Positions 5,517-55,588 of a stretch of 64,000 nucleotides of DNA are shown here, one piece after another (position 1 is the stretch's first letter; each line of letters starts with the position of its first letter). The DNA comes from Pseudobdellovibrionaceae bacterium (GTDB lineage Bacteria > Bdellovibrionota > Bdellovibrionia > Bdellovibrionales > UBA1609). The notes under the pieces were generated by a model. That model saw nothing but the letters and a program-made list of their open reading frames with translations. It was not told the origin of the DNA and did no database searches. The stretch is taken from positions 40,230 to 104,229 of the forward strand of contig JAUVAX010000004.1 in the NCBI GenBank assembly GCA_030591685.1. The letters run 5' to 3'. The position numbers were made by a program, and so were the translations under genes.

Positions 5517-5715
5517 AATTTTACCCTTTGCTATTAATTAGACCATTAAAACTATTATTTGGTTAAAATTTGCGGGCTTATTTTATCCCACTTAAAATAG
5601 CATACGTTTAGCTCAATAACTAATCAAGGCATTAGCCCTGCATAATTGATTACAGACTTTGGTCTAGCTGCCCTTTGCTGATCAAGCACACGGGGCATCA
5701 GTCTTTAACAAGCTC

Positions 5716-6558: not shown

Positions 6559-6675
6559 ATTGGAGCTCCTCTAAGTTTATATAAAATAATTATTTATTAT
6601 TTTTTACTATAGCACAATCAAATACGCTTTTAAGGCGGGGGGAGGGGACTTAATTCATCAAATCACTATTTAATA

Positions 6676-7960: not shown

Positions 7961-7985
7961 AAGCTTAGTTTAAACCACATAAAGG

Positions 7986-8897: not shown

Positions 8898-9241
8898 TGA
8901 ATCAACTCCATAATACAACAAAAAATCACGTTATTGCTACTGAAGTCATTGTGGCAAAATCTTTCCTTGAAAGAGGTCGCGGACTTCTTGGCAAAAAATC
9001 CTTTCCAAAGAAAAAAGCGCTCTGGATTCATCGTTGTCGAGACATACATACCTTTTTTATGAAGTTCCCCATTGATGTTATATTTGTTAACAAAAAGCTA
9101 CAGGTCCTTTCTGTTCGCACAAATATTAACCCCTGGAGGTTTGCCTTTAATCATAAAGCCAATTCTGTTTTTGAGTTCAAAGCAGGGTCCATCAATAAAT
9201 CTCTTGTCGAAATAGGAGACCAATTAAATGTGGGTTCTTAG
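8897..9241 (+). CDS. DUF192-like small protein
   Basis: AKSFLERGRGLLGKKSF...ALWIHRCRDIHTFFMKFPIDVIFVNKKLQV...NPWR...ANSVFEFKAGS...IGDQL follows the DUF192 (COG1430) pattern as I recall it. Its start overlaps the upstream stop (TAATG). Confidence 0.7.
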   Translation: MNQLHNTTKNHVIATEVIVAKSFLERGRGLLGKKSFPKKKALWIHRCRDIHTFFMKFPIDVIFVNKKLQVLSVRTNINPWRFAFNHKANSVFEFKAGSINKSLVEIGDQLNVGS

Positions 9242-11788: not shown

Positions 11789-11790
11789 AA

Positions 11791-13830
11791 ATGAAACTTA
11801 AAGTCACACTTCATGGTCAGATAATTCACGAGCTTTCCTTAGACGAGCAACGGGAGTATATTGTTGGTCGAGGAAATAATTGTGACATAGTCCTTAGTGG
11901 TGAGCGTGGCATTTCAAAAAAACATATAAAATTTTACTTTAATGGCCAAAATTGGGAGGCTGTGCTTTTATCAAAATACGGGGCCCTTCTTTGCAAAGGG
12001 GAGAGCCACACTCAATTAGATTTAGTTGAAGACATTCATTTTTCCACCCCCCCTTTTGAGTTCAACTTCACCATAGAGGCAAGGCTCTCATTGTCCGACG
12101 ACAGCAGCGGTGTGCAGGAGAATAATGAGGCTCACAGTGCTCAGATAGAGGATGACTTACGACTCGTCGACGAAGACGATCCCGCTAACCTTGAACCCTC
12201 TAGCTCCCCTGAGCACCAGGCCCATGATACGGATAGCAGTTCACAAAGTGAAACGCCTGGAAACCTAGAGCCCACTCAAGTCATCTCACCAATTTTAGAT
12301 GCAATACTGCAAATTAAGTACCCTGATGGTGTGAATGAGTCCGTAAGGCTCACCGGAAACGCCTGGACTGCTGGCAGGAGTCCAGGTTGTGAAATTTATA
12401 TCAATAATGATAATGTCAGCCGCGATCATTTTGAAATTGAAAAAAGGAATGATGGATTTTACATCACAGACCTCAAAAGTTCAAATGGAACAAAAGTTAA
12501 TGGTGATAAGTTAACTCCACATGTTTACGTTAAACTTGAGAGTGGATCTAGTATTAATATTAAAAAAATTATTTTAATTTTTACACTCAAAAATAATGAG
12601 TTTTCTAAAAGCCTAGATCTTATTAGCGATGAGGCGCCTGCGTCTGGCTCTCCACACTACTTAGTTCCGGCAGCAGACCCACAACCAAGCATTACCCCAT
12701 TATATATGACCCCCATAAACTCTGGCCCTGCTGTGGTTAGAGTGCCTCCTGAAAAATTTAATTTATCTGAATTTCGAACGTATAACTCTAAACACAAAAT
12801 TAGAGCTATAGCTCTTTTACTTTTACCTTTATTTGCCTGGGTATTGCTCTCAGATAGCCCTGAAAAGAAAAATCAATCGAGCACAAAACCCTCCGCTCCC
12901 TATGACAAATTAACAGAAACTCAAAAAGAATCTCTGTCTCACTCTTTAGAAATGGCTCAAGTACACTATAATGGAAAGAAATTTGCTCTATGCCTATCTG
13001 AAATGAGTAAAATACATATTGTGCTTCCGTCAGGTCACGGCAACTCAAAGCAGTTAGAAGTGTTTTGTAAAAGCGCAAAACAACAATCCAATCATATTAA
13101 AATGCTGAGTGAACAGCGTGCCGAGGCTCAGAAAAACCAAGAAATCGCCGAAAGAGTTGTTTCTGAATGCCGTGACCAGGTGAGCACCTTTAATACCTTA
13201 CCTGAAGTCGACTCATGTTTGTCTGAGGCCAGCGAACTTGTTGGCCATGAACATGAGTCTATTTTAGAGGTTCGACAAAAGGTTATTGATAAAATTAAAA
13301 AAATTGAAGCCGAACGAGCCAACAGGCAAAGCTATGTGAGAAGGCTCGCGACAGGAAAAGCAATGTTTAATCGGGCCATAAAACTCTACAGAGGGAACAA
13401 ATATAGAAAATCAATCTCTCAACTTAAAAAATTTATTGCCTCATCATACCCTGACCCAAATAATAATAAAAATACAGCGCGCAAAGCATTAAAAGAGGCT
13501 CGCTCTAAACTTTCCGTAATGGTTAATAAATCTCTTCGTGAGTGCAAAAGCCTGCTTGGACAAAATAAATTTAGGGATGCTATGAAGATGTGTAAAAAAG
13601 CAGAGTCCCAAGACCCTAGAAATCCCAAAATTAGCGCCTTAAAGTCTGAGGTTAGAAAAAAGCTCTCTATACGAATGAAGGAGTTTTATCAAAATGCCTC
13701 TATCGAGGAGAACTTTGGGAACATAGAGGCCGCCAAGGACCTTTGGAGTAAAATAGCAACCGAGGACTTCCCCTCTGGAAGTCAATACTACCGCAAAGCT
13801 CGAGGCAAACTCAAGCTGTATGGATTATAA
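11791..13830 (+). CDS. membrane protein with two FHA domains and TPR/coiled-coil C-terminal region
   Basis: FHA-1 is YIVGRGNNCDIVLSGERGISKKHIKFYF. FHA-2 is WTAGRSPGCEIYINNDNVSRDHFEIEKRNDGFYITDLKSSNGTKVNG. An acidic Ser-rich linker separates them. The TM is IRAIALLLLPLFAWVLL, and the long helical C-terminus is TPR-like. Confidence 0.8.
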   Translation: MKLKVTLHGQIIHELSLDEQREYIVGRGNNCDIVLSGERGISKKHIKFYFNGQNWEAVLLSKYGALLCKGESHTQLDLVEDIHFSTPPFEFNFTIEARLSLSDDSSGVQENNEAHSAQIEDDLRLVDEDDPANLEPSSSPEHQAHDTDSSSQSETPGNLEPTQVISPILDAILQIKYPDGVNESVRLTGNAWTAGRSPGCEIYINNDNVSRDHFEIEKRNDGFYITDLKSSNGTKVNGDKLTPHVYVKLESGSSINIKKIILIFTLKNNEFSKSLDLISDEAPASGSPHYLVPAADPQPSITPLYMTPINSGPAVVRVPPEKFNLSEFRTYNSKHKIRAIALLLLPLFAWVLLSDSPEKKNQSSTKPSAPYDKLTETQKESLSHSLEMAQVHYNGKKFALCLSEMSKIHIVLPSGHGNSKQLEVFCKSAKQQSNHIKMLSEQRAEAQKNQEIAERVVSECRDQVSTFNTLPEVDSCLSEASELVGHEHESILEVRQKVIDKIKKIEAERANRQSYVRRLATGKAMFNRAIKLYRGNKYRKSISQLKKFIASSYPDPNNNKNTARKALKEARSKLSVMVNKSLRECKSLLGQNKFRDAMKMCKKAESQDPRNPKISALKSEVRKKLSIRMKEFYQNASIEENFGNIEAAKDLWSKIATEDFPSGSQYYRKARGKLKLYGL

Positions 13831-17543: not shown

Positions 17544-18188
17544 TTATGACATGTGATTTTTGAACTGAATCATTAGTTCTTTTTTAAATTCATCAATATT
17601 CACTTTCACACCAAGGTCCTCTAACGAGGTCATCACTGAGGTTGAAAACCCACAGGGAGTAATACCAGTGAAAGACTTCTCGTCACTCATTATATTAATG
17701 GCGGCTCCATGATAGGTAATCCATTTTTTAACTGCAATACCTATAGATGCTATTTTTTTTTCTCCCACCCAAACTCCTGTATAACTTAACCGAGAGTCTG
17801 TATTATTTACTTCAGGCAGGCGAACAGAGGCCTTAATAGCGAATTTATGTAAAGTCTCAATCAACACCCGCTCAAGATGCCTAAGGTACTCGTGAATGTC
17901 TCTTTTTTTAAAAGAGCTTCTCAGTTTGTTATCTAAATTTATGAGTGGGTAAATGACTAACTGACCTGGACCATGATAGGTCGCTCGCCCCCCCCTGGAG
18001 GTTTCAACCACATCCCCATCCCAACTTTGTAAATCCTCAGGTTTTGAGGCTCTGCCAAGAGTCACAACCGGAGGATGGGTGCAAAAAACAATAATTTCTT
18101 GTTTGTCTTTATATACTTGCTCCAATAAATGGAGCTGACGATTAAGGGCCTGTTCATAATCAATGAGCCCCCAGTCCTGAAACTTCAC
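17544..18188 (-). CDS. lipB: lipoyl(octanoyl) transferase
   Basis: CTHPPVVTLGRASKPEDL, RGGRATYHGPGQLVIYPL and KKIASIGIAVKKWITYHG are LipB motifs, including the catalytic Lys and Cys regions. Confidence 0.9.
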   Translation of the reverse strand: MKFQDWGLIDYEQALNRQLHLLEQVYKDKQEIIVFCTHPPVVTLGRASKPEDLQSWDGDVVETSRGGRATYHGPGQLVIYPLINLDNKLRSSFKKRDIHEYLRHLERVLIETLHKFAIKASVRLPEVNNTDSRLSYTGVWVGEKKIASIGIAVKKWITYHGAAINIMSDEKSFTGITPCGFSTSVMTSLEDLGVKVNIDEFKKELMIQFKNHMS

Positions 18189-18190
18189 AA

Positions 18191-19633
18191 TTATGCGTTG
18201 GCTCTAGGGGCGCCGGTAAGGGGCTTGTTAATGACATGAACCGCGTGCCCAAGGGCGGCCTCAGCCACCTCCATCATGGTTTCACCAAGCGTTGGGTGAG
18301 GGTGAATACTTAAAGCTAAATCCTCAAGTCGAACGCCCATTTCAATGCCTAAAACAGCCTCGCTAATAAGGTTAGAAGCTTCAGGTCCAACAATATGAAC
18401 ACCTAAAACAATATGAGTTTTTTCGTCAGCAATAATTTTTATAAAACCATCTGTTTCTAATATCGCAACGGCTCGGCCATTAGCAGCAAAGGGGAATTTA
18501 CCAATCTTTAACTCGTGGTGTCCATTTTGTTTGCATTGCTCCTCAGTCCAACCGGCACTAGCTATCTCTGGGTCAGTAAAAATAACCGCAGGCACTGTCT
18601 TGGCGTCGTACACACGGTTGTGACCCGCTATAACCTCAGCAACAAGAACCCCTTCATGGCTGGCCTTATGCGCCAGCATCGGCTGACCGGCAATATCACC
18701 AATAGCAAAAATATGAGGGATATTAGTTCGACACTGTGGATTTATTTGCACAAAACCACTTTCGTTCACTTTAATACCCACAGCTTTTATATTAAGTTGA
18801 TCTGAGTTTGGTCTACGGCCCACTGTTAGTAATATTTTATCGGCCTCTACGGTTTCGAGTTTTCCTTTAATTTCAGCCGTTACTAAAAGCTTGTTTCCCT
18901 GTTTTTTATAAGACTTTGCAAACGCCGACGTGTGAACTTTAACACCTGACTTTTTAAGCTTTCTCTCGACAACCTTTACACACTCCGCATCAGCGGAACC
19001 TTTTAATAGTGCCCCCCCTGCTTCAAGAACAGTCACCTCAGAGCCCAACTTTTGCAAATAAGAACTAATTTCTAAGCCTATGTACCCACCGCCAATAGTA
19101 ACTATTTTTTGGGGCACTTTTTCTAAATCAAGTGCTCCTGTAGAAGTTAAAATATCCTTTTCATCAGGTTTAAACCCTGGGATTTCAATGGGTCGAGAGC
19201 CCGTTGCGATCACAAAATATTTGGCTGTAATAGTTTTATCACCATTTTTTGTTTTTACACTCAGCTCGTTAACGGTTTTAAACGAGGCTTCTCCTGAAAT
19301 CACCTCTACTTTGTTCCCCTTTAAAAGCTGAGACACCCCGCCTGACATTTTATCGCAAACTGATTGTTTCCAGTTTTTTAATTTCGACATATTAACTTTT
19401 ATGCCCTCGGTGCCTTCAAATCCCATTTTCGGAGCTTCATGTTGGGTTTTATGTAAAAAATGTGCTGCCGCGATCATGGCCTTCGAAGGTATGCAGCCCA
19501 CATTTAAACAAACCCCTCCTAAATACTCCCGCTCAATAACAACTGTTTTATACCCTAACTGAGCCGAACGAATGGCTGCGACATACCCACCAGGGCCTGC
19601 GCCAATAACACATACATCAAAATTCATACTCAT
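18191..19633 (-). CDS. lpdA: dihydrolipoyl dehydrogenase (E3)
   Basis: FAD motif VIGAGPGGYVAA, redox-active disulfide GGVCLNVGCIPSKA, and C-terminal HAHPTLGE-type motif (IHPHPTLGE). Confidence 0.95.
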   Translation of the reverse strand: MSMNFDVCVIGAGPGGYVAAIRSAQLGYKTVVIEREYLGGVCLNVGCIPSKAMIAAAHFLHKTQHEAPKMGFEGTEGIKVNMSKLKNWKQSVCDKMSGGVSQLLKGNKVEVISGEASFKTVNELSVKTKNGDKTITAKYFVIATGSRPIEIPGFKPDEKDILTSTGALDLEKVPQKIVTIGGGYIGLEISSYLQKLGSEVTVLEAGGALLKGSADAECVKVVERKLKKSGVKVHTSAFAKSYKKQGNKLLVTAEIKGKLETVEADKILLTVGRRPNSDQLNIKAVGIKVNESGFVQINPQCRTNIPHIFAIGDIAGQPMLAHKASHEGVLVAEVIAGHNRVYDAKTVPAVIFTDPEIASAGWTEEQCKQNGHHELKIGKFPFAANGRAVAILETDGFIKIIADEKTHIVLGVHIVGPEASNLISEAVLGIEMGVRLEDLALSIHPHPTLGETMMEVAEAALGHAVHVINKPLTGAPRANA

Positions 19634-19648
19634 TTTAATTCGCCTTTT

Positions 19649-20938
19649 TTAAATCATGTCTAAAATTAAATTACTAGGATGCTCTATACGACGCAAAAAG
19701 CCTGACAAAAAGTTCGCTGCAACAGCGCCATCTATTAATCTATGGTCTGCTGTGATCGTAAAGTTCATTACCTTTGCGGCTCTAAATTTGCCATTAACCA
19801 ATATGGGCTTGTCTTGAATTTTGTACATCCCAAGTATAGCCACCTCTGGGTGATTTATGATCGGAGTCGCATAATTACCACCAATACTTCCTATGTTAGT
19901 GATTGTAATCGTAGCTCCTTTCATTTCTTCAGACTTTAACTGACCTGCGCGGGCCCGTCCGGCTAAGTCAGTAATTTCTTGGCTGATCTGTAAAATTGTT
20001 TTTCGATCAGCGTCTTTAATAACAGGAACAACAAGTCCATTTGGTGTATCAGCAGCAAAACCAACATTAAAGTTCTTTTTATAAACAATTTCTTCAGCCG
20101 CATCATCAATGCTTGCATTAAACATTGGAAACTCTCGACATGTGGTGATCAAAGCTTTCATAACAAATGGTAAATAGGTGATTTTAACACCCTGTTTTTC
20201 AGCTGAGATTTTTGCTTGAGTTCTCATTTTTACAAGCTCTGTAACATTGGCTTCATCCATCAATGTGAAATGAGGAATTATTTGCTTAGCCATCTGCATT
20301 TGCTTTGCAATTTTACGTCTTACTCCTCTTAAGGGGACTCTTTCCTCAACAACTCCGGAGTGACTTGTGTAGGCCGGAGGCGCTATAGAGGGCGCGCTCA
20401 TCTCAGGTTTAGTTTTAGCAACAACACCTTGGTTTTTAGCCTGTAAAACATCCTCTCTGGTAACTCTTCCGGCCAGGCCTGACCCACCTACTATATTAAG
20501 ATCCACCTCTAACTCTCGCGCCAGTCTTCTTGTACTCGGTGTGGCGAGTACTTTTGAATCCGCAACGGGGGGATAGACCTCACCGCTCAAATGAAAACCG
20601 TTTGAACTTGCAGGCTCCGCTGGCTTTTGAGTTGCTTTACTGGCGACCGGACTCACTGACGGGGCCTTTTTCTCTTTGAACGTAGACTTATTTGTCGCAT
20701 CAACATCTAATATTAAAAGGGGTGTCTCAATGGGGACTATTTCCCCCTCAGAAGCTTTAAGCTCCTTCACTATTCCTGAAACAGGTGTGGGCACTTCTAC
20801 TGTGGCTTTATCTGTTAATACCTCGGCAATGGGCTGATCGGCCTCAACCTTGTCGCCAATCGAAACTAACCATTTTACCATTTCACCCTCAGTTACACCC
20901 TCGCCAATATCAGGTAAGTTTACAGTTTGTGTTGCCAT
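19649..20938 (-). CDS. 2-oxoacid dehydrogenase E2 dihydrolipoamide acyltransferase (single lipoyl domain)
   Basis: Lipoyl domain EVLTDKATVEVPTPVSG, peripheral subunit-binding domain ATPSTRRLARELEVDL..GSGLAGRVTREDV, and catalytic DHRLIDGA. Confidence 0.9.
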   Translation of the reverse strand: MATQTVNLPDIGEGVTEGEMVKWLVSIGDKVEADQPIAEVLTDKATVEVPTPVSGIVKELKASEGEIVPIETPLLILDVDATNKSTFKEKKAPSVSPVASKATQKPAEPASSNGFHLSGEVYPPVADSKVLATPSTRRLARELEVDLNIVGGSGLAGRVTREDVLQAKNQGVVAKTKPEMSAPSIAPPAYTSHSGVVEERVPLRGVRRKIAKQMQMAKQIIPHFTLMDEANVTELVKMRTQAKISAEKQGVKITYLPFVMKALITTCREFPMFNASIDDAAEEIVYKKNFNVGFAADTPNGLVVPVIKDADRKTILQISQEITDLAGRARAGQLKSEEMKGATITITNIGSIGGNYATPIINHPEVAILGMYKIQDKPILVNGKFRAAKVMNFTITADHRLIDGAVAANFLSGFLRRIEHPSNLILDMI

Positions 20939-20964
20939 GTTTTTGACTCCTTAATTTTTGATTT

Positions 20965-21924
20965 TTATATTTCTCTTTGTTTTTCGATAACGCCTTTAAT
21001 AAAATACTCACCCGCTTTGTATGAGCTCCGCACAAGTGGGCCACTGGCCACGTATAGAAACCCCATTTGCTCGGCCTCAGCTTTCCATGACTGAAATTTT
21101 TCTGGAGTCACGAACTCCTCAACTTTTAATTGCTTGCGTGTTGGCTGTAAGTATTGACCAAAGGTCACAACATCACAACCAATCTCTCTTAAATCTCTTA
21201 AAGTTTTTCTGACCTCTTCATCTGTTTCACCAAGGCCCAACATAATCGAAGTTTTTGTATAGGTTTTAGGGCTCTCAGACTTAACAAACTCTAACACCTT
21301 AAGGGTTTGCCAGTAACCGGCCCTTCGATCTCTCACTTTTTTTGTTAAACGCTCCACTGTTTCAATGTTTTGAGCAAAAACGTGGGGCTGAGCCTCGATC
21401 AATTTTAAAACATGATCTGTGTTTCCTTGAAAGTCCGAAGTAAGTACCTCAATAATAATTTTGGGGTCCTTTTTTTTAATCTCACAAATAGTGTCGGCAA
21501 AGTGCTGAGCCCCCCCGTCGTCAAGGTCGTCCCGATCTACACTAGTTAAAACAATATAACTTAAATTCATTTCGCCAATGGCATACCCCATTTTTTGTGG
21601 CTCTTTTTCGTCCACTACGCCTTTGGGGTTCCCTGACTTAACGGCGCAAAATCGACAACCTCGAGTGCAGGTATCTCCGAGCAACATGACCGTCGCAGTA
21701 CCACCAGCCCAACACTCGGCCATGTTGGGGCATACCGCCTCCTGACAAACTGTCGACAATTTTAAATCCTTAAGCAGTGATTTGACCTTAAGGTATTTTT
21801 CGCCCGAGGGGGGGCGCATTTTAATCCATGCTGGCTTTGGCTGTTTTTTATGATCTTTTTTTTTCACTTCACTCGGTAAAAGGCCTGGCATAATGCCTCC
21901 AAAATATAAATTGATAGTGCTCAT
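20965..21924 (-). CDS. lipA: lipoyl synthase
   Basis: Auxiliary cluster motif CQEAVCPNMAECW and radical-SAM motif CTRGCRFCAV. Confidence 0.95.
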   Translation of the reverse strand: MSTINLYFGGIMPGLLPSEVKKKDHKKQPKPAWIKMRPPSGEKYLKVKSLLKDLKLSTVCQEAVCPNMAECWAGGTATVMLLGDTCTRGCRFCAVKSGNPKGVVDEKEPQKMGYAIGEMNLSYIVLTSVDRDDLDDGGAQHFADTICEIKKKDPKIIIEVLTSDFQGNTDHVLKLIEAQPHVFAQNIETVERLTKKVRDRRAGYWQTLKVLEFVKSESPKTYTKTSIMLGLGETDEEVRKTLRDLREIGCDVVTFGQYLQPTRKQLKVEEFVTPEKFQSWKAEAEQMGFLYVASGPLVRSSYKAGEYFIKGVIEKQREI

Positions 21925-32478: not shown

Positions 32479-33129
32479 TTAGGGCCTCATTACCCAGGTC
32501 TGCCCACGGCAAGCCCTTTGGTTTTCATAGTATTTATAGTTTTTATGACAGGGGTCGTAGTCTTCATGCGCCCAGCGCTCCCCTTGCCAAATTTTACTAA
32601 TAAAATACCTTTTTGCTGGCTTGAAGTTTTTTAAGTGAAAGTATTTTACTTCGAGCATTTTTAAAGCCTGAGTCTTGTTTTTACCCATGTATATCATTTG
32701 ATAAATGGCCGAGGCCTCACCAGTTCTATCAGCCCCCCCCTGGCAGTGAACCAAAATGGGCTTTTCAGACCTGTCTAAAGTATTTAATAGAGTTATTAAA
32801 TCTTTTTTATGCGGAAGTCGACTGGCCCCCATACGAATATCTACTTGAACGATTTGATTGTTTTTAATGACCTGCACTTGCTCGTCGTACCAGGGCTTTC
32901 CTTGGTTTTCCCCTCGCAAATTAATGACGGTCTTAATGCCGTACTTTTTGATTTTTTCATCTAAAACTTCAGGATCTAGTTGAGCCGAACGGTAGTAAGT
33001 GTTTTTATCGATCTCATAAAAGTTTTCACCTATAAGCTCTTTGCATGAGCTTAAAAACACAACATACATAATAAGAGTTAAAACCTGAAAATGCCGAACC
33101 ATGTCCTCTCCTTGATACTTATAGTTCAT
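32479..33129 (-). CDS. Cys-based protein tyrosine/dual-specificity phosphatase-like lipoprotein
   Basis: Active-site loop VHCQGGADRTGEAS (H-C-x5-R-[ST]). Lipobox-like VVFLSSCKE at the N-terminus. Confidence 0.75.
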   Translation of the reverse strand: MNYKYQGEDMVRHFQVLTLIMYVVFLSSCKELIGENFYEIDKNTYYRSAQLDPEVLDEKIKKYGIKTVINLRGENQGKPWYDEQVQVIKNNQIVQVDIRMGASRLPHKKDLITLLNTLDRSEKPILVHCQGGADRTGEASAIYQMIYMGKNKTQALKMLEVKYFHLKNFKPAKRYFISKIWQGERWAHEDYDPCHKNYKYYENQRACRGQTWVMRP

Positions 33130-33241
33130 AAGAGGGCGGGGCTATTGTCACAAATTTATTTTTATTCTCACCACTTCAGGACTAAAGTCCTCTTAGGCTT
33201 TGATTACAGATTTTCATTTTTAAATTATTATTAAGGTGGAT

Positions 33242-34252
33242 TTACTCGGTTAAGATGTAGTTTTTAGGGTCTACCGGTAAACCATGAATACGAACTTCAT
33301 AATGTAAATGGGGGCCTGATGAGCGCCCCGTAGATCCAACGGCTGATATTACATCTCGACGTTTTACTTTTTGCCCCACTTCAACAAAGGTTTGAGAATT
33401 ATGAGCGTACCTGGTGACCACTCCAAACCCATGATCAATAGACACTATTTTGCCATAACCCTGCTCATACCCCACATAAGATATAATCCCCGAAGCCGGG
33501 GCATAAACCGGTGTTCCTGGGGATGCGGCCATATCTATACCATTATGCATTTGTGGCTTACCTGTAAAAGGATCTAGTCGGTAACCAAACTGTGAAGTAA
33601 ACCAACCCCTTGTTGGCTTTATACTTGGGGTGGCCGTTAATAAAGATTGTCTCTCTGAGAGCTGGTCGTAGAGCTGTAAAACACTCTGCTCGGTGAGTTC
33701 TGTGTTTTGTACAGACTCATCAATGCGTATAGATAAAATGGCATACCCACGTACAGCCTCCTGACTGAGTTCACCATTTGAAATATCTAAAGGGGCTTTT
33801 TCTAAAAATAACGAGTCCGACTTAAAACTTTTAGCATTCAAGGGCTCTCGTTTTGACTCTTCATAAAAATTTATACCTTGAGCAAAACTACCCGACGACA
33901 CGGACAACTTTAAGGACCGATCATCGTCTTCAATATTTGTTATCAGCTTTAATTTTCTAGAAAAGTTCTGAACTCTGTCGAGACTTTTTTCAAGAGTTAC
34001 CAGCTTAGACTCTACCATACGAAATTGTCTTTTTAATTGCTCACTCTCAGCCTTTAAGCGCTTGTTTTCTGTTGTTTGTAACAGCAGTCCAACATAATCT
34101 AATGACGCCGCTGAAGCCACAACAGCTAAAATACCACCAAAGACTACACAAGCTTTAATCCACGCCGACGATACCGTAACAGCCCTCGTGGTCCCTTTTC
34201 TGTTTGAAGAAAGTAGTATTGTGTATGTTTTTTCTCTCATTACCTTAGCCAA
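33242..34252 (-). CDS. M23/LytM-family metallopeptidase with N-terminal TM and coiled coil (EnvC-like architecture)
   Basis: HNGIDMAASPGTPVYAPASG...YGKIVSIDHG....RYAHNS...GSTGRSSGPHLHYEV carries the HxxxD and HxH zinc motifs. It is preceded by a coiled coil (LKAESEQLKRQFRMVESKLVTLEKSL). Confidence 0.9.
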   Translation of the reverse strand: MAKVMREKTYTILLSSNRKGTTRAVTVSSAWIKACVVFGGILAVVASAASLDYVGLLLQTTENKRLKAESEQLKRQFRMVESKLVTLEKSLDRVQNFSRKLKLITNIEDDDRSLKLSVSSGSFAQGINFYEESKREPLNAKSFKSDSLFLEKAPLDISNGELSQEAVRGYAILSIRIDESVQNTELTEQSVLQLYDQLSERQSLLTATPSIKPTRGWFTSQFGYRLDPFTGKPQMHNGIDMAASPGTPVYAPASGIISYVGYEQGYGKIVSIDHGFGVVTRYAHNSQTFVEVGQKVKRRDVISAVGSTGRSSGPHLHYEVRIHGLPVDPKNYILTE

Positions 34253-34372
34253 GTAGTTTTTATTAATAATTGCTTTTTAACTTACCCTAAAATGGCCCTT
34301 GAGCGAACATCATGCAGCGTCAAACGCGCTGTCCCCTTTTAAGCTAGCTATGGGGCTTGATGAATCTAAATA

Positions 34373-35101
34373 TTAACTGATCTCTAGTACGAGAACAGAG
34401 ATGTTGTCATCTCCACCGCCAGACTTTGCGGCCTCTATGCTTTTTTCAACAACTCTATTTGTGGGGGTATTTTTTAAGATTTTAGCAATTTTCTTATCCT
34501 CAACAAGCCCACAAAGACCATCGGAGCAGAACAAGTAAATCTCCCCAGGCTCTACCTTTCTTGAAAAAATATCAGGGTCTACAGATCTTTCAAACCCCAC
34601 ACTTCGAGTGATTACATTTTTACCTGAAACATAGGGCAAGTCAGACTCTTTAATAATTCCAGCTTTAATTTGCTCATTAACTAAAGAGTGATCCTCAGTC
34701 AGTTGCCATAGCTTTTCGGACTTAAACATATAAGCGCGTGAGTCTCCCACATTGCCAATAAACAATTGTTTTTTCTTTATGAACCCCATGACCATTGTTG
34801 TCCCCATACCTAAGAGCTCTGGCGATTCCATGCTTCCTTTATGGTAGATTCTGGCACTGGCCTCAATAAAACACTTTCTTAAAAGATCCGCGGGCGGAAT
34901 ATCCTTACCAATCACGTTATAACTATTAATGATTTCTTGAGTTGTATGAACGGCGATATCAGAGGCTATTTCTCCGCCTTGATGACCGCCCATTCCATCG
35001 GCGACAATAAAAAGAGCAAGATCTCTATTTATTAAAATAGAGTCCTCGTTAGATTCTCGCTTTAGACCTACGTCTGTTTGTCCCCAAATATCAAACTTCA
35101 T
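34373..35101 (-). CDS. PP2C-family Ser/Thr protein phosphatase
   Basis: GLKRESNEDS, FIVADGMGGHQGGEIAS, GNVGDSRAYMF, LCSDGL and GGGDDNISVLVL: all PP2C motifs are intact. Confidence 0.9.
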   Translation of the reverse strand: MKFDIWGQTDVGLKRESNEDSILINRDLALFIVADGMGGHQGGEIASDIAVHTTQEIINSYNVIGKDIPPADLLRKCFIEASARIYHKGSMESPELLGMGTTMVMGFIKKKQLFIGNVGDSRAYMFKSEKLWQLTEDHSLVNEQIKAGIIKESDLPYVSGKNVITRSVGFERSVDPDIFSRKVEPGEIYLFCSDGLCGLVEDKKIAKILKNTPTNRVVEKSIEAAKSGGGDDNISVLVLEIS

Positions 35102-36808: not shown

Positions 36809-39598
36809 GTGGGAAACAAAAAAACTGGATTTGATAACATCGATACCATTATCAGCCGTGCTCGTTATTTAATTGCACAAATGATTTACTCTGCCAATCA
36901 CAGAACTAATGTTGAAAAAGGCGACCCTAAGGTGGGCGGCCATGCGGCGGCCTCAACAAGCGCTTTACATATACTCAGCGCTCTTCATTTATTTGTAAAA
37001 ACGGGCTTTGACCACATTGCCAATAAGCCACATGCCTCCCCTGCAGACCACTCCCTAAATTATTTATTAGACTTATTTTTAAAAGACGACCTCTCTAAAC
37101 TTACTTTAGAAGAGTGCAATACAGCCATGAATGGCTTAAGAGCGTACCCTGAAAACGGTGAGTATGTATTTCAATCCTACCACTCCGCTTATGACCCTGA
37201 CTTTCATAATTTTTTTCCATCAGGGACGGTGGGCATACCCCCTGTTAATGCTGGCTATTTAGCACTCGCTTACAGGTATGCTAAAAATCATGGTTACAAT
37301 GCACCGGAGGCCCATTTTTGGTCTATCATCGGTGATTCTGAGTTTCGTGAAGGGTCACTTTTTGAGGCCATACCTGATTTTGCAGAAAGAGAGCTCGGCA
37401 ACCTCACTTGGATCCTTGATTACAACCGACAAAGTTTAGACGGGCACCGTATTTCAAATAGAGAAATCATGAACGGTACCGATGGCGACAGAATACACCG
37501 CACCATGGTTGCTAATGGATGGGACGTCATAGAGGTTCAGCATGGCAAGTTCCGAAAAGAACTCTTTAAACGTAATTCGGGGAAGGATTTTAAAAAGTTT
37601 TTTGAACTAGACCTTGAAGACTTCGAGCTACAAGCGCTTTTGGCCATTCAAGACCCCAAGACTTTAAAGCAAGATCTTGTAAAAAAATATCCGCAATTAA
37701 AAATATTTATTTCTAATGTTAATGATCAAGAGCTTTTTAAGGGCTTTCGGGACTTTGGAGGTCACTGTGTTCAAACCCTTATTGAAGCACTCTTAGAATC
37801 CAAGAAAAATGCAAGAAAGCCGTGCATGGTAATTATCCATACCATTAAGGGATTTGGCCTTGATATGGCGGCTTCTGGAAGTAACCATTCCGCCATCCCG
37901 ATAAAGGCTGAAATCGATGCTCTAAGAACATCTGAGGGTATTTCTGAAAACGATTTATTTGCTCGATTTGATGACACCTCTATTGAGGGTCAGTTTTTAA
38001 AAAAACGAGGTGGTGAGCTTTATACACAAATTAAAGAGCAACGTAAAATCAAAGAACAAAATATAATAGACTTTAAAGAAAAGCTTTCAAATTTTGGTGA
38101 GCTCAATGACTCATTAGATATAAATTTAAAAATGGCCAACTTTCCTCATACACAATGGATGTTAGGGCAATTAACATCAAAACTCTCACGTCTGGCAAAT
38201 ACCCCTCTTGATGAGACTCAGTTGAAAAAACAACAACGACCGCTTTCAGAGTCTGAAAAACCCTGGAAACTGCCCGCTGAGTTATTTGTCAACATGTCCC
38301 CTGACGTTGGCACAAGCACAAACCTCAACCCCTCGATGGACGGCAAAGTATTTAGCGCCTCACATGTTGATGATTTTGAAAAAGAGTTTGGCGTAAAAAA
38401 TGAAAAAATCCCAGACCTCATCCCCGGAGTTGAGGAGTCTGATCGTTTCATTCGATTTGAAATTTCAGAGGCAAATGCCATGAGCTGTGTTGGCTCATTT
38501 GGAGTACTCCGTGACACGTTAGGCATCCCCCTTATACCGCTCATGACCGTTTATGATTTTTTTGTGAAACGAGCTTTAGACCAATATTTTTATGACCTTT
38601 ACTGGAAGTCGAGTTTTATATTGGTCGGCACGCCCTCGGGAGTCACTCTTTCACCAGAAGGGGCTCAACATGGATGGAAATCAGACATTCAAATACCCAA
38701 CCAAATTACGTGGGAACCCTTTTACTGTTTAGAGTTAGATTGGATTTTATCTGATGCCATTAAACGGCACCTCTCATTTAATAATGAGGGCCGTACGGGC
38801 GTTCTCATAAGAGGGGTCACAAAGGGCCTTGATCAAAAAACTTTACTTAAACGACTCAAAACCCACGCTCGATTTAAACAGGGCGAAAGTGTTGAGCTCA
38901 GCCATAGTGATTTTTCTATCAACGGAGGCACAAATGAATCTGAAGTTCCAAGCCTACCTGATCACGAAATTTTAGAACACTTAAAGGCCGATGTTTTATC
39001 GGGCGGATATTATTTAATTGATTACCGCGGGTACGCCGGCTATGTACCCGGCGACAATGTTGTAAATATTATTGCCATGGGATCCCTTTCGGAAGAGGCC
39101 TCAAAAGCCTCTAACGAGTTACTTGAGCGTGGTATTTACGCTAATGTTATCGTTGTCACCAGCCCAGACTTGCTCTGTGGCAACCTAGGCGCTGAAAATG
39201 ACTACCATCACTTAATTCAAAATTTAAAGATTGATGCCTCATTGTATATTTCGCCCTCTCAACTAGATCAGGCCCACGAACTAGTAACGGTCGCCGGAAG
39301 ACGCATACCTATAGTGAGTACACACGACGGTGAGCCCGGTTTACTTGATAACATTGGATCTATAGTGGGTGTTAAACAGGAGGCCTTAGCTGTCAGAAAG
39401 CACTCTAGATGTGGTCGTCCAGCAGATATATATAAGTTTCATCATATTGACGAATCCTCAATTGTTGAGGCCTGCGGAAAGGTACTCTCTGAAACGGCAC
39501 TTGAAAACATCCACGTAAATAAGCAAACATTAACTTCAGCTGAAAATCACCCCCCTCTGGGTGGTCATTGGCGAGAGTTTTGGCCTGAAAAAAAATAA
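36809..39598 (+). CDS. aceE: homodimeric (AceE-type) 2-oxoacid dehydrogenase E1 / transketolase-like ThDP enzyme, divergent
   Basis: GTG start with GGAG 9 nt upstream. KVGGHAAASTSALHIL, IGDSEFREGSLFEAI....LGNLTWILDYNRQSLDG (ThDP/Mg motif), VIIHTIKGFGL and GTPSGVTLSPEGAQHGW align with E. coli AceE motifs as I recall them. 929 aa. Confidence 0.75.
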   Translation: MGNKKTGFDNIDTIISRARYLIAQMIYSANHRTNVEKGDPKVGGHAAASTSALHILSALHLFVKTGFDHIANKPHASPADHSLNYLLDLFLKDDLSKLTLEECNTAMNGLRAYPENGEYVFQSYHSAYDPDFHNFFPSGTVGIPPVNAGYLALAYRYAKNHGYNAPEAHFWSIIGDSEFREGSLFEAIPDFAERELGNLTWILDYNRQSLDGHRISNREIMNGTDGDRIHRTMVANGWDVIEVQHGKFRKELFKRNSGKDFKKFFELDLEDFELQALLAIQDPKTLKQDLVKKYPQLKIFISNVNDQELFKGFRDFGGHCVQTLIEALLESKKNARKPCMVIIHTIKGFGLDMAASGSNHSAIPIKAEIDALRTSEGISENDLFARFDDTSIEGQFLKKRGGELYTQIKEQRKIKEQNIIDFKEKLSNFGELNDSLDINLKMANFPHTQWMLGQLTSKLSRLANTPLDETQLKKQQRPLSESEKPWKLPAELFVNMSPDVGTSTNLNPSMDGKVFSASHVDDFEKEFGVKNEKIPDLIPGVEESDRFIRFEISEANAMSCVGSFGVLRDTLGIPLIPLMTVYDFFVKRALDQYFYDLYWKSSFILVGTPSGVTLSPEGAQHGWKSDIQIPNQITWEPFYCLELDWILSDAIKRHLSFNNEGRTGVLIRGVTKGLDQKTLLKRLKTHARFKQGESVELSHSDFSINGGTNESEVPSLPDHEILEHLKADVLSGGYYLIDYRGYAGYVPGDNVVNIIAMGSLSEEASKASNELLERGIYANVIVVTSPDLLCGNLGAENDYHHLIQNLKIDASLYISPSQLDQAHELVTVAGRRIPIVSTHDGEPGLLDNIGSIVGVKQEALAVRKHSRCGRPADIYKFHHIDESSIVEACGKVLSETALENIHVNKQTLTSAENHPPLGGHWREFWPEKK

Positions 39599-43466: not shown

Positions 43467-43841
43467 TTACTTTTGGCCTCGGAGGTAGTCTGACCTAACC
43501 TCCGTAATTATACTTATAAGCTGGTTAATGGCTTCAGTTGAAACGTTGAGCTCTTCGAATGTTTCTATAAGCAAAGAGGACAGAACATTTACCTCTTCTT
43601 CATTGTGACTGTCTGTAACAAATCGCTTGTAGCTTTCTTTAATGGCATCATGGTCCTCTTTACAAGGGCCTCCAAGAGCATAAGTTATAAAATCAGTTTG
43701 AACACTTTTATGAATAGATGGATCTATATTATAAAAAATATGTGCTATTTGTTTATTTCTCATGACTTTGTCATGAAAGAGATCAACGGCAATTTTAACT
43801 GCCAAAGCTCCACCCATTTTGTCATAGACTTCTGAACTCAT
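43467..43841 (-). CDS. truncated-hemoglobin-fold (2-on-2 globin, group I-like) protein, Tyr at the proximal-His position
   Basis: VYDKMGGALAVKIAVDLFHDKVM....FITYALGGPCKEDHDAIKESYKRF aligns colinearly with cyanobacterial/mycobacterial GlbN (LYEKLGG..AV...VDKFYERVL...FLTYAFGGTDKYDGRYMREAHKEL). The residue 12 positions after the GGx motif is Tyr, not His. Confidence 0.7.
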   Translation of the reverse strand: MSSEVYDKMGGALAVKIAVDLFHDKVMRNKQIAHIFYNIDPSIHKSVQTDFITYALGGPCKEDHDAIKESYKRFVTDSHNEEEVNVLSSLLIETFEELNVSTEAINQLISIITEVRSDYLRGQK

Positions 43842-43958
43842 ACTTTACCCTTTGCCTGCCCGCTATACCAATGTATAGTCATTAGGTTATAAGCACTATC
43901 GACGTTCCTTAAGATTTACTAAAGGGTTATTTTAAAGCGAATCAATTCGGTACAAACT

Positions 43959-44369
43959 TTAAATTAATTTAGCCACCGGCTCATTATTTAACAACTCGTC
44001 ACTACTTATGCCTATTTTAACTTCCAGAGTTGCCATCCACATTGACTCAATATGATGTATAATTTCATCACTAATCCCAAGGCCCTCAAGAGTCCTTGAT
44101 AGCTCCTGAAATATAATTAGCAAATGTCTGTTCTGTAGCCCCAGTTTACTGAGTTTCTCAAATCGTTCATTGAGTACCTTAGTTGATTGATTCATCGGGC
44201 CACCAAGGAGGTAAACAAGCAAATTATTCTGAAAATTTGCTGCCTCCTCAACCCCTTCTTTTAAGTAAAAGCCCTTAAGGTCTTTATTAGTTACCAGCCT
44301 TTTTGCATAGGCTTCGGCAATAATTTTAACGGCAACAGCTCCCCCTATTTGAAAATACTCTCTTGCCAT
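43959..44369 (-). CDS. truncated-hemoglobin-fold protein paralogue, Phe at the proximal-His position
   Basis: YFQIGGAVAVKIIAEAYAKRLV....LLVYLLGGPMNQSTKVLNERFEKL has the same colinear pattern. The B10-like Tyr is retained (EAYAKR), and the residue at GGP+12 is Phe. Confidence 0.65.
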   Translation of the reverse strand: MAREYFQIGGAVAVKIIAEAYAKRLVTNKDLKGFYLKEGVEEAANFQNNLLVYLLGGPMNQSTKVLNERFEKLSKLGLQNRHLLIIFQELSRTLEGLGISDEIIHHIESMWMATLEVKIGISSDELLNNEPVAKLI

Positions 44370-44410
44370 GTGGATTCTCCCTTAATGGAGGTGGGGTTGC
44401 CATTTTATTC

Positions 44411-44635
44411 TTAGTGGTTTAAATCTCTTTTTTCACTTATTTCAGCGCTTAACTCATCTATAACTAATTTAACTCTATTGATCTCATCGGGGCTAAAACC
44501 CATTTCATCACAGTGCAGGACAACGCACTCAAGTAGCATTTGCGCTTTAACAAGTTTTGAATTATGCATTGTGATTAAATTGTCTCCCTCAATAAACTGA
44601 TAGCAATTACTTTTAGTTTTTTTTAGTGTTTTCAA
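44411..44635 (-). CDS. small hypothetical protein (74 aa), first gene of the putative globin-like operon
   Basis: The ORF ends 41 nt upstream of the globin-like start on the same strand and follows a 338-nt AT-rich promoter-type region. No motif recognised. Confidence 0.35.
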   Translation of the reverse strand: MKTLKKTKSNCYQFIEGDNLITMHNSKLVKAQMLLECVVLHCDEMGFSPDEINRVKLVIDELSAEISEKRDLNH

Positions 44636-44973
44636 TCTGACACCCTCTTTTTTTTAAAAAACGTCCCACTTCATGATTTCGACTCAGGTGATATGATATA
44701 AATTTATCGGCAGTACTAAAATTTAGCTAAACATTTAATTTATATAATTAAACAAAAAAGCATATTTTTGCTCTAAAATGACACACTATAAGTAACTCCT
44801 CTCAAAAAATATACTTACATGTATCATCTCTAGATGATCCCCTACAGATGGGCCTCACCTCTACTGTTTTTTAAAAATTATCGCTTAAAAAAATAGGTCC
44901 TCTTTAGTCATGAATCTGCATAAAAATATGCTTAGATCACGTGAGGGTATAGAGTTAGTTAATAGCCTTGGGG

Positions 44974-46302
44974 CTAATTAGTACTATATAAATTTTGTAC
45001 GTTTAATATATTCGAGAGTTCATCAAGGGCTTTTCTTGATTCCAACAAAAGACTCGGGTCCCTTAAATCATTTAGTGTCAGCTCATCTCGGTAGTGCTTA
45101 CTCACCCAGGCTGTTAATTCATCATACTTAGAACTACTCAACAAACACCCCTGATTGACTTTTAAAAGTTGATCCTTAGTGAGCTGAACCCTAAGTCTTA
45201 AGCAGGCCGGCCCCCCACCGTTTTTCATGCTCTGTAAAAGGTCAAAGTAAAGTACTTTACTCACAGGGTTTGTAGGGTCCTTAATCATACTGTCTATAAA
45301 ATCTCTTGTAGAGTCACATAACTTGCAATTTTCAGGCGCCACTAAAGCCATCTCACTGTCGTTTATAGATACGAGTTGAGAGTTAAATAAATAAGTTTTA
45401 ACGGCCTGCTCTACACTAACCTGCTCTGAGGTGACCTTAATAGGTATTAAATTGTGACCCAATTTTTTATTAATGGTTTCAATCACAGCCTCTGTATTAA
45501 CAAATGACTTTTCATGGTACAAAAATACATTTTTACACCCAACACTGATGACATCATTATGAAAAACTCCTGCGTCTATAACCTCTGGGTTTTGCTGCAC
45601 AAAATAACACAAGTCAGGTCGAAGGTTATTAACCCTTGCTATGGCCTGACTGGCCTCTAGAGTTTGCCTTGCTGGGTATTTTATAGGCCGAATAGCCTCT
45701 TCATCTAGGGCCTTTCTGCCATAGACAAAAAAGTGTAACCCTTCGCCAGTTTTTGGGTTTTCAAAGCGTGTGTGGTTTGCAGCCCCCTCGTCAGAAAAAG
45801 CCTCACCCAGCTCTAAAGCCGGATGCACCGTGAAAACTTCACGGTCTGGGAAAACACAGTTTAAAGATTTATAAGTAAATAAATGCTCTATGGACCTGTG
45901 AGGTTTAGCTCTTAAATTAGCGGAGGTTAAATGAACCTTTCCGTCTAAGGTGTCTTGGCTTGGGGCTACTGTTGCTGCGTTAGCTGTCCACATAAATGAT
46001 GATGAGAAGCAAATAGATAAGAGTGTTGGGTCTTCTTTAAATGCCTTTTCTATGACTTGCGAATCGGAGCCTGTAAAACCAAGGTTTCTTAATGCTGAAA
46101 GTTCAGGTCGAGCATGTATAGGCAATATACCCTGTGGTATACCTAGGTCAGAGAGGGCCTTAGCCTTTTTCAACCCCTGTAGTGCCCCCTGCTTTGGTGA
46201 CGATACTGTTGACTTAGATGTTGAAGAGGCCCTGTTCCCGTACGACAAACCTCCATAAAAATGGGTTAACCCAACAAGACCATCAAAGCTTACTTCTACC
46301 AC
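44974..46302 (-). CDS. astB: N-succinylarginine dihydrolase
   Basis: N-terminus EVSFDGLVGLTHFYGGLSYGNRAS matches AstB ([21 protein letters not shown].AS). C-terminal GGGPACLRLRV contains the catalytic Cys of this guanidino-modifying family. Confidence 0.9.
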   Translation of the reverse strand: MVEVSFDGLVGLTHFYGGLSYGNRASSTSKSTVSSPKQGALQGLKKAKALSDLGIPQGILPIHARPELSALRNLGFTGSDSQVIEKAFKEDPTLLSICFSSSFMWTANAATVAPSQDTLDGKVHLTSANLRAKPHRSIEHLFTYKSLNCVFPDREVFTVHPALELGEAFSDEGAANHTRFENPKTGEGLHFFVYGRKALDEEAIRPIKYPARQTLEASQAIARVNNLRPDLCYFVQQNPEVIDAGVFHNDVISVGCKNVFLYHEKSFVNTEAVIETINKKLGHNLIPIKVTSEQVSVEQAVKTYLFNSQLVSINDSEMALVAPENCKLCDSTRDFIDSMIKDPTNPVSKVLYFDLLQSMKNGGGPACLRLRVQLTKDQLLKVNQGCLLSSSKYDELTAWVSKHYRDELTLNDLRDPSLLLESRKALDELSNILNVQNLYSTN

Positions 46303-46368
46303 TGACTACCCCTTATAAAAAAAGTACTTTCATTAAAGTAACCATAACTCTCACACTTTTGTACTGAA

Positions 46369-47028
46369 TTATTTTTTAACTGCAACGGTCATCCCCTCTC
46401 CGGTAGGGATAAGAGAGGAGAAGTACTTCTCAGAATTAGATAATCTCCCATTGAATTCTTGCATTATAGCTACAGGGTTAGGGGGTACTTTTATATCTTT
46501 TTGACCCTCACCGTAAACATACCCAAAAAGAAACGTGTTATCCCCGACAATTAATCCGCCTGGTCGCACACACTCCTCAGCCCAGTTTAAGTATTCAATA
46601 TACCCACCCTTGTTGGCATCAATAAACACCATATCAAAAGGGGCTTGGTTTTTAAGTTCAGCTAAGCTCTCTAAAGCTTTGCCCTCAATGAGTGTGATTT
46701 TATCTGCAAAATCTGAGCGCTTAAAAAAATTATTAGCAATTGTAGCATTATGTTTCTCATGCTCCAGGGTATATATATGCCCATCACTAGGGAGAGCTTC
46801 GGCTAACCAAAGGGCTGAGTACCCATATAGAGTGCCTATTTCTACAATTGTTTTAATGCCACCAAGTTTTATAAATGATTGTAATAATCGGGCTTCGTTA
46901 GGGCTAATATGAACCCCTTCTTTTTCGTCTTCTTGTAGTTTCTCCCTAACTGACTGTAGTAATTCATTCTCCTTACCAAAGACTTCATCGATATAATTTT
47001 GCCTCTTTGGAGTGTGTTGATTACGCAT
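46369..47028 (-). CDS. class I SAM-dependent O-methyltransferase (caffeoyl-CoA OMT / YrrM-like)
   Basis: IVEIGTLYGYSALWLAEAL (SAM motif I) and FDMVFIDANKGGYIEY (metal/SAM motif) are typical of the Methyltransf_3 family. Confidence 0.85.
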   Translation of the reverse strand: MRNQHTPKRQNYIDEVFGKENELLQSVREKLQEDEKEGVHISPNEARLLQSFIKLGGIKTIVEIGTLYGYSALWLAEALPSDGHIYTLEHEKHNATIANNFFKRSDFADKITLIEGKALESLAELKNQAPFDMVFIDANKGGYIEYLNWAEECVRPGGLIVGDNTFLFGYVYGEGQKDIKVPPNPVAIMQEFNGRLSNSEKYFSSLIPTGEGMTVAVKK

Positions 47029-54751: not shown

Positions 54752-55588
54752 TTATGAAGTAATGTCGTGTATATGCTTGGTGTTTACCTTTGGGTTCCCT
54801 GATTTACTAACACTAACGATGTCTGCAAATTGCCCCTCTGATTTTATATCATCGACACCATAGGCTTGCTTTGAATATATCTGATGCGAAAAAGTACTAT
54901 CAAATCCAACAAGGGTTGCGACAACAGCAACACCCTCCTGCTTTAAATCAGATAAAGTTTTATTATAAAATGGGCTCTCTTTAGTAATTGTATGAATCAC
55001 AGTCCAAGAGAGCTCTAAAAGGGGGTTGTGCTTTCTTCTCACGAGTAGGTTTTCAAAACGCCTCATTAATATGCCTTCTTTAGTGATCTCATTATAAGTG
55101 TACGTTAAATAGATTTTAGCGTCGACAATCTGATTTTTTCTTTCATTTGCCAGCCTCAGCATCACTGACTTCTCGCCGTTATGCTCAGTAATTAAAATTT
55201 TATTACTAAACACAATTTTTGATGACGGCCTGGAAAACCGAGCAAATAACAGCCCCGTAGCCATGGCTAAATTAATAACCCCTACATAAACCTGAGCTGT
55301 TACGATGTAGTTGGCATAGTCTGTTTTTGGATACATCAAACCATAACCAATAGTAGATATACTTTGAACTGAAAAAAAGAAGTGATCTAAAAAATTACCC
55401 ATTTTAGCATTAGCAATACAGCCCGGATCAAGCATATAAAGAAAAGCAAATACCGTGTTAATTAATAGGTAAACTATTATTGAAAAAATGAAAAAGTAGT
55501 GAACAGGCCAAGTTAAAATTTTATGGTAAGGGTCTCTGGTTATCCGGCGGGCATCAAAAAATGAATGTATACCTGTGTTCACTTTCAT
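54752..55588 (-). CDS. prokaryotic inward-rectifier-type K+ channel (KirBac family)
   Basis: Two TM helices flank a pore helix and the selectivity filter FFFSVQSISTIGYGLMYP. The cytoplasmic beta-rich domain after ARFSRP matches the Kir layout (slide helix, M1, P, M2, C-terminal domain). Confidence 0.85.
   Translation of the reverse strand: MKVNTGIHSFFDARRITRDPYHKILTWPVHYFFIFSIIVYLLINTVFAFLYMLDPGCIANAKMGNFLDHFFFSVQSISTIGYGLMYPKTDYANYIVTAQVYVGVINLAMATGLLFARFSRPSSKIVFSNKILITEHNGEKSVMLRLANERKNQIVDAKIYLTYTYNEITKEGILMRRFENLLVRRKHNPLLELSWTVIHTITKESPFYNKTLSDLKQEGVAVVATLVGFDSTFSHQIYSKQAYGVDDIKSEGQFADIVSVSKSGNPKVNTKHIHDITS

Follow-up and report, generated by a model that had tools for sequence, protein, structure and literature searches.

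The proximal histidine at helix position F8 is described as absolutely conserved in hemoglobins, and the main published censuses of truncated hemoglobins (trHbs) require it for inclusion and discard sequences that do not have it (PMC1457004, PMC4720485), so His-less members go systematically unrecorded. In trHbs, the residues that hold the heme are His F8, a basic residue at E10, and those at E4, EF6, F4 and H16 (Bustamante et al. 2016, PMC4720485). Globin folds without a proximal or distal His are nevertheless known from the RsbR N-domain, the pXO1-118/pXO2-61 sensor domains, the phycobiliproteins and the photoglobins, which bind a non-heme ligand such as a fatty acid or a bilin and, in the case of phycocyanin, carry a Tyr in the place of the proximal His (PMC8717448, PMC7475203). 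These are separate lineages, not truncated hemoglobins. Here we describe a tandem pair of genes, in a 64,000-nucleotide stretch of the genome of a Pseudobdellovibrionaceae bacterium (GenBank assembly GCA_030591685.1, contig JAUVAX010000004.1, positions 40,230 to 104,229; hereafter the window), whose products derive from group I (N-type, trHbN) truncated hemoglobins and have Tyr or Phe aligned with the proximal His. An initial annotation of the window had proposed as much from the letters alone, and the open reading frames (ORFs) that it listed, together with a third one upstream, have the coordinates it gave.

43467..43841, minus strand: ORF1, 124 amino acids (aa), a divergent group I truncated-hemoglobin-fold protein
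43959..44369, minus strand: ORF2, 136 aa, a more divergent paralogue of ORF1 with the same fold
44411..44635, minus strand: ORF3, 74 aa with a TTG start, on the same strand and 41 nucleotides (nt) upstream of ORF2

Sequence and structure searches confirmed ORF1 and ORF2 as full-length homologues of group I trHbs, colinear with Synechocystis and Synechococcus GlbN, Tetrahymena pyriformis trHb and M. tuberculosis HbN (PF01152). ORF1 passes the gathering threshold of the Pfam family Bac_globin, PF01152 (27.9 bits, threshold 21), and in HMMER searches of the Protein Data Bank (PDB) it aligns over its full length with Synechococcus GlbN (7.1e-16), Synechocystis GlbN (1e-15) and Tetrahymena trHb (1.5e-14). 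ORF2 has no Pfam or NCBIfam match, but its PDB matches include Tetrahymena trHb (3.4e-9) and Synechocystis GlbN (2.6e-6). The profile of alignment A2, of which ORF2 is itself a member, gives it 97 bits (E = 2.1e-22). The two proteins are 24% identical to each other (E = 1e-11; 21-24% across comparisons), and no relative exceeds 37% identity to ORF1 or about 28% to ORF2. AlphaFold gave both the helix order of a 2-on-2 globin, with a mean predicted local distance difference test (pLDDT) score of 84.3 for ORF1 and 87.8 for ORF2, but these models were built from a 94-row alignment of family members, and a hemoglobin alignment will steer them to the hemoglobin fold. With that caveat, the leading Foldseek matches of both models in the PDB, 30 or more from the top, are without exception group I trHbs, at template modelling (TM) scores of 0.73-0.77; ORF1 reaches 0.76 to trHbN structures, and ORF2 reaches up to 0.75 by query length and 0.84 by target length.

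The features shared with group I trHbs are both Gly-Gly hinges (G10-G11 and G57-G58 in ORF1, G9-G10 and G56-G57 in ORF2), the GGP turn, the E11 Gln and the predicted 2-on-2 fold. Both proteins also keep two core leucines, those at 91 and 98 in ORF1 numbering, whereas V19, E97 and V100 are kept in ORF1 only, and ORF2 has a C-terminal extension of about 12 residues. The pair are clearly tandem paralogues descended from a group I truncated hemoglobin.

Unlike group I trHbs, ORF1 has a Tyr and ORF2 a Phe at F8, and the B10 Tyr, the basic E10 residue, the EF6 Tyr and the Gly that precedes the F helix are replaced. The HMMER alignments run ungapped from the EF Gly-Gly to F8, with Tyr71 of ORF1 under the His of MREAHKEL and Phe70 of ORF2 under the His of mteaHk, and when MAFFT aligned them with 42 or with 92 relatives, both residues again fell under the proximal His, in a column with a His share of at least 90% and of 100%, respectively. 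Both sit at the canonical distance, 13 residues past the second EF Gly and 12 past the Pro of the GGP turn, the latter being the distance counted in the initial annotation. In the AlphaFold models both lie in the middle of the predicted F helix (residues 64-76 in ORF1, 63-75 in ORF2). The alignments confirm the proximal His as absent from both proteins.

Neither protein has a His within two residues of F8, but other histidines lie further off. The predicted F helix of ORF1 begins with His64, seven residues ahead of F8 and on the same helix face; this residue or His79 in ORF1, and His82, His105 or His106 in ORF2, might ligate a normal heme if the F helix were locally shifted. Another possibility is that the Tyr71 codon of ORF1 (TAC, 43629..43631), one base away from a His codon, is a sequencing error for CAC. 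We consider either of these highly improbable. No alignment or predicted secondary structure places a His at F8, including the His64 that the initial annotation had singled out for checking, and all alignments and both models keep the canonical spacing with Tyr or Phe at that position. In ORF2, the nearest His is more than eleven residues from F8, and its Phe70 codon (TTT, 44160..44162) would need two changes to become a His codon. One sequencing error would also leave the coordinated substitutions elsewhere, described below, unaccounted for.

To place the pair among its relatives, every domain of 271 related proteins was realigned, and non-His F8 calls were counted with a tolerance of two residues to guard against one-residue register shifts. 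F8 is His in 171 of the 172 single-domain relatives other than ORF1 and ORF2, and Gln in the remaining one. Apart from the pair, only this 127-aa protein (P0114), with the motif MRAAQTAL and a Phe at B10, lacks His F8 among the free-standing single-domain relatives. The remaining His-less domains occur only inside long tandem-domain proteins, where neighbouring domains usually keep the His, and belong to two groups that by name are eukaryotic, Perkinsus olseni and a Lacrimia protein of 1882 aa and 13 domains, and to an asparagine-rich metagenomic family (P0024). The domains from Perkinsus olseni and the asparagine-rich family are of trHbN type like ORF1 and ORF2, with Tyr, Asp, Trp, Gln or Phe at F8, but they sit beside His-keeping domains and are at most about 25% identical to ORF1, whereas ORF1 and ORF2 are free-standing bacterial proteins. 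Among the eukaryote-like multi-domain trHbs, as many as 13 tandem domains are found (P0005, P0017, P0027 and P0024, from Lacrimia, Perkinsus, Astrephomene and the asparagine-rich family), and Tyr, Asp, Trp or Gln replaces His F8 in some of their internal domains. In the literature searched, coverage of which was incomplete, no description of a free-standing His-less truncated hemoglobin was found. The His-less pair is real and uncommon.

The rest of the heme pocket is altered as well. Counts below are for the 172 single-domain relatives.

B9: Phe in 140; Phe22 in ORF1, Tyr21 in ORF2
B10: Tyr in 166; His23 in ORF1, Ala22 in ORF2
CD1: Phe in 171; Phe36 in ORF1, Tyr35 in ORF2
E7: Gln in 110, Leu in 55; His44 in ORF1, Ala43 in ORF2
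E10: Lys, His or Arg in 129; Val47 in ORF1, Phe46 in ORF2
E11: Gln in 145; Gln48 in ORF1, Gln47 in ORF2
E14: Phe in 164; Phe51 in ORF1, Leu50 in ORF2
EF6: Tyr in 152; Glu62 in ORF1, Gln61 in ORF2
Position 64 (pre-F): Gly in 155; His in ORF1, Thr in ORF2
F5: Arg in 134; Lys in ORF1, Asn67 in ORF2
G5: Phe in 154; Val84 in ORF1, Leu83 in ORF2

ORF1 and ORF2 depart together from the family at F8, B10, E10, EF6 and position 64. ORF1 and ORF2 have diverged along their whole length (mean identity to the family 29% and 22%, respectively), so our argument for loss rests on such near-invariant columns and not on a statistical enrichment of pocket changes. His23 of ORF1 takes the place of the B10 Tyr, as first noted, but the accompanying claim that the B10 region is conserved in both proteins holds only in part: ORF1 has the B9 Phe, while Tyr21 of ORF2 aligns with B9 and leaves Ala22 at B10. 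In place of the Phe B9-Tyr B10 pair with Phe CD1, ORF1 thus has Phe-His with Phe, and ORF2 has Tyr-Ala with Tyr. The changes at B10 and CD1 are not decisive by themselves, since both positions vary in proven trHbN proteins, for example Shewanella benthica HbN with its Phe B10 and Tyr CD1 (PMC11904497). What both proteins lack is the defining feature of the family, His F8.

With the F8 His, B10 Tyr, basic E10, EF6 Tyr and pre-F Gly gone, canonical heme anchoring is lost, and we infer that ORF1 and ORF2 cannot work as ordinary O2- or NO-binding hemoglobins. The initial annotation had offered a Tyr-ligated heme, a different cofactor or a non-heme sensor or adaptor as options; the sequences and models do not single out one of them, but with E10, EF6, the pre-F Gly, B10 and G5 changed in addition to F8 the scale tips towards heme binding being lost or strongly altered. 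We take ORF2 to be almost certainly heme-free, since it has Phe at F8, no candidate iron ligand and a pocket that is almost wholly apolar (Tyr B9, Ala B10, Tyr CD1, Ala E7, Phe E10, Gln E11, Leu E14, Leu F4, Phe F8, Leu G5 and Ile G8); it keeps His82 at G4. Canonical heme binding is improbable for ORF1 too. The reading that we favour, with a probability of about 0.5, is that both are cytoplasmic globin-fold proteins of a non-canonical, essentially heme-free kind; read by eye, neither N-terminus looks like a signal peptide. A His-less ancestor would have arisen from a group I trHb through a loss that happened once, before the duplication, after which selection would have kept the 2-on-2 fold, the Gly-Gly hinges and the hydrophobic core. 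The former heme cavity would serve another hydrophobic ligand or a protein partner, and ORF1 and ORF2 might act together, possibly with the 74-aa ORF3 protein encoded upstream.

Several points weigh against this heme-free reading. The pocket residues are no bulkier than the canonical ones: a crude sum of side-chain volumes over 11 pocket positions, from standard values per residue, comes to about 1866 cubic angstroms in the consensus, against 1827 in ORF1 and 1755 in ORF2. A cavity the size of a heme may thus persist and bind a ligand, be it heme or something else. The AlphaFold models, with an alignment of heme-binding relatives behind them, cannot show whether this cavity is open. Among the window ORFs of at least 150 aa, none was recognised as having an evident link to heme, and no orthologue by which to gauge constraint, synteny or the ratio of nonsynonymous to synonymous substitution rates (dN/dS) turned up in any collection that was searched. 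ORF1 in particular retains four pocket residues (Phe at B9, CD1 and E14, Gln at E11), its F8 residue is Tyr, a competent heme ligand, and it has His at B10 and E7, so that it may still bind ferric heme.

These features of ORF1 would be put to use if it were a hemoprotein with swapped ligands, in which Tyr71 coordinates ferric iron as tyrosinate, His23 or His44 serves as sixth ligand or hydrogen-bond partner, and ORF2 is a heme-free partner. Tyr exactly at F8 and His at B10 are the reverse of the canonical His/Tyr pair, each change requiring a single nucleotide, and besides the four retained residues just named ORF1 has hydrophobic residues at F4, G5 and G8 and a Lys at F5. Solved trHbN structures tolerate changes at B10 and CD1, as in the Shewanella protein cited above (PMC11904497). 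Tyrosinate-ligated hemes are known from hemoglobins M, in which His F8 is changed to Tyr, myoglobin H93Y, catalase and hemophores of the HasA, ChtA and HtaA types, and the ligand set of ORF1, a proximal Tyr and a distal His, is like theirs (PMC12494546). But those proteins are point mutants or have unrelated folds, whereas ORF1 has also lost other heme contacts, with Val at E10, Glu at EF6, His before the F helix and Pro in place of Met at E4, and some of the lost residues help hold the heme; any heme binding by ORF1 is putative. An aromatic residue at F8 is also what would be expected of an empty pocket that has simply been filled, as with the Phe of ORF2 and the Tyr, Trp or Phe of other His-less domains. 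ORF2, with its Phe, cannot qualify as a tyrosinate-ligated heme protein at all. We regard ligand swapping in ORF1 as the main alternative, possible but doubtful. Its suggested consequence, a locked ferric state that would lend itself to catalase- or peroxidase-like chemistry or cytoplasmic heme buffering and not to O2 or NO binding, is put forward just as tentatively, and the lack of a signal peptide makes a secreted hemophore role unlikely.

Equally tentative is the suggestion that the pair forms a heme-independent offshoot of the 2-on-2 fold, whose cavity holds another ligand or, in ORF1, a metal bound by His23, His44, His64 and Tyr71, with the paralogues, perhaps joined by ORF3, acting as a sensing or adaptor complex. 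The pair would then resemble the globin-fold families with non-heme ligands introduced above, and, if this were true, would be the first case of truncated hemoglobins giving rise to a globin family without heme. Neither protein has a Pfam match to those families at E <= 1 (ORF1 matches only Bac_globin, along with chance-level hits, and ORF2 nothing), and the structural neighbours of both models are all trHbs, with no non-heme globin family among them.

ORF1 and ORF2 are intact genes with native codon usage. Their frames are open over 124 and 136 codons, and their codon preference (0.087 and 0.071) falls within that of the 52 long ORFs of the window (0.079 +/- 0.024). By a codon log-odds score, ORF1, ORF2 and ORF3 (0.168, 0.199 and 0.168) resemble pieces of real genes (0.17 +/- 0.06), and all 51 spurious ORFs score below the three (0.02 +/- 0.07). 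These observations bear on whether both genes might be functionless, decaying relics of a duplicated trHbN whose frames have yet to be disrupted. The loss of near-invariant functional residues in both proteins would fit such decay, as would the fact that both are singletons with no orthologue in billions of proteins, that no promoter was detected and that ORF2 falls below every Pfam threshold. Still, the frames and the fold have been kept while the two diverged to 21-24% identity, which argues against simple decay; the fold-determining glycines and core leucines remain, AlphaFold is confident for both, and each gene has the codon composition of real genes and a Shine-Dalgarno-like motif. On balance we think it unlikely that the pair are relics.

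The loss of the His probably predates the duplication, as a single event in a common ancestor that was followed by tandem duplication and long divergence. This order is suggested by the shared losses at five near-invariant positions and by rare residues held in common. ORF1 and ORF2 share five family-rare residues, including an Ile in an Ala column and an Asn in the Asp B16 column, against a mean of 1.2-1.4 when either is paired with the rest of the family, with 7-8 in some pairs. In DNA, the two genes are also 83% identical over 29 nt at the first Gly-Gly, a stretch that covers the GGA-AVKI motif (43791..43819 and 44322..44350); it is consistent with tandem duplication, yet not far above what identical residues would give.

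The pair was found in one genome only. Word-indexed searches of 5.8 billion protein clusters with ORF1 and ORF2 returned only the query proteins themselves, an index of encoding contigs listed neither of them, an exhaustive HMMER search of 1.84 billion representatives found nothing above 37% identity to ORF1, and scans of Joint Genome Institute (JGI) metagenomes for the ORF1/ORF2 pair and for AstB, the product of the neighbouring gene, gave no match. The species genomes of GTDB held no orthologue, only one ordinary His-containing trHbN and one spurious match. Much the same holds for the window at large: of the 13 proteins looked up, 12 were in the collection, where each stands by itself or nearly so at 90% identity, and the thirteenth was missing. 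Neither the GTDB species representatives nor the JGI metagenomes contain the genome, which makes this an otherwise unsampled lineage. The genomic context of the nearest homologues is unrelated to the ORF1-ORF3 locus. The closest GTDB match, the His-containing trHbN, lies in a metagenome-assembled genome of the Alphaproteobacteria (L001 5920..7399), and directly after it comes a 2Fe-2S/FAD-type reductase-like ORF that may be its redox partner. A eukaryotic origin of ORF1 and ORF2 was considered and rejected, because eukaryotic multi-domain proteins lead only in total score, which sums over their domains; judged by single domains, the top scorers are bacterial or metagenomic.

Within the limits of a pair from one genome, with no orthologues and no functional context, ORF1 and ORF2 offer intact and confidently folded test cases for what a 2-on-2 fold does without canonical heme ligation. 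They could be used to ask whether a natural Tyr(F8)/His(B10) swap can hold heme, and how a cofactor-binding fold is repurposed.

Two noncoding intervals accompany the three ORFs.

44636..44973, no strand: AT-rich gap of 338 nt, 31.7% GC, between astB and ORF3, the presumed promoter region of the cluster
43842..43958, no strand: spacer of 117 nt between ORF2 and ORF1

On the minus strand the gene order is astB (44974..46302), ORF3, ORF2, ORF1, and a convergent ybbP-like permease gene ends at 43430, 36 nt from ORF1, so that the spacers along the cluster measure 338, 41, 117 and 36 nt. The 74-aa ORF and the AT-rich upstream region are as the initial annotation had them; the latter compares with about 40% GC for the genes. 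A purine-rich, Shine-Dalgarno-like motif lies 6-8 nt before the start codon of each of the three ORFs, which for ORF3 is a GAGGG 7 nt upstream of the TTG. The proposal that ORF3, ORF2 and ORF1 form a three-gene unit is plausible from this layout, given their shared strand, short spacers, Shine-Dalgarno-like motifs and coding-like codon use. Neither a promoter, nor a terminator, nor conserved synteny was found in its support. A regulatory RNA, terminator or promoter around the cluster was rejected after every scan came back empty: no sigma-70 consensus was found upstream of ORF3 on the minus strand, no terminator around the cluster, including the 338-nt gap and the 117-nt spacer, and no Rfam match in either interval. 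The predicted RNA fold of the spacer is no better than that of shuffled sequences (z = +1.0), and the upstream gap likewise has no stable fold and does no better than its shuffles.

ORF3 is probably a real small gene, because its codon score lies above those of all 51 spurious ORFs; its place in the unit is inferred only. It has no homologue in Pfam, NCBIfam, PHROGs, the PDB or the protein collection. Residues 41-66 (HCDEMGFSPDEINRVKLVIDELSAEI) align to the trHb G/H corner by three methods, none of them significantly (p about 0.01-0.05; Smith-Waterman z = 1.9; hhalign P = 0.012 and probability 3.7%), and the 338-nt gap upstream holds no globin remnant in any frame. The idea that ORF3 is a third, truncated globin was rejected as unsupported, though it is retained as a lead.

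The genes that flank the cluster are a tesA/ybbA/ybbP-like set, astB, an O-methyltransferase gene and a HAD phosphatase gene, and further out in the window lie ABC, amino-acid carrier, TrhP, decarboxylase and gamma-glutamyltransferase genes. The product of astB is a succinylarginine dihydrolase that scores above the equivalog cut-off; the gene adjoins that of the O-methyltransferase (44974..47028 for the two, minus strand), and no other gene of the arginine succinyltransferase pathway was seen in the window. Elsewhere in the window, a homologue of Kir-type inward-rectifier potassium channels is encoded at 54752..55588 on the minus strand, with IRK_C, Ion_trans_2 and IRK domains. A 929-aa protein (36809..39598, plus strand) weakly matches models of pyruvate/2-oxoglutarate dehydrogenase E1 (135 bits, cut-off 860), and genes for E2, E3, LipA and LipB occur at 17544..21924. 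PP2C, DSP-phosphatase and M23 peptidase genes are found at 32479..35101; together with the DivIVA and FHA-domain genes described next, they hint at an organism of Bdellovibrionota- or Myxococcota-like character. A DivIVA gene stands beside proC, yggS and maf, and three consecutive genes for FHA-domain proteins come after a T2SS-F-like gene (4920..8897 and 9228..13830).

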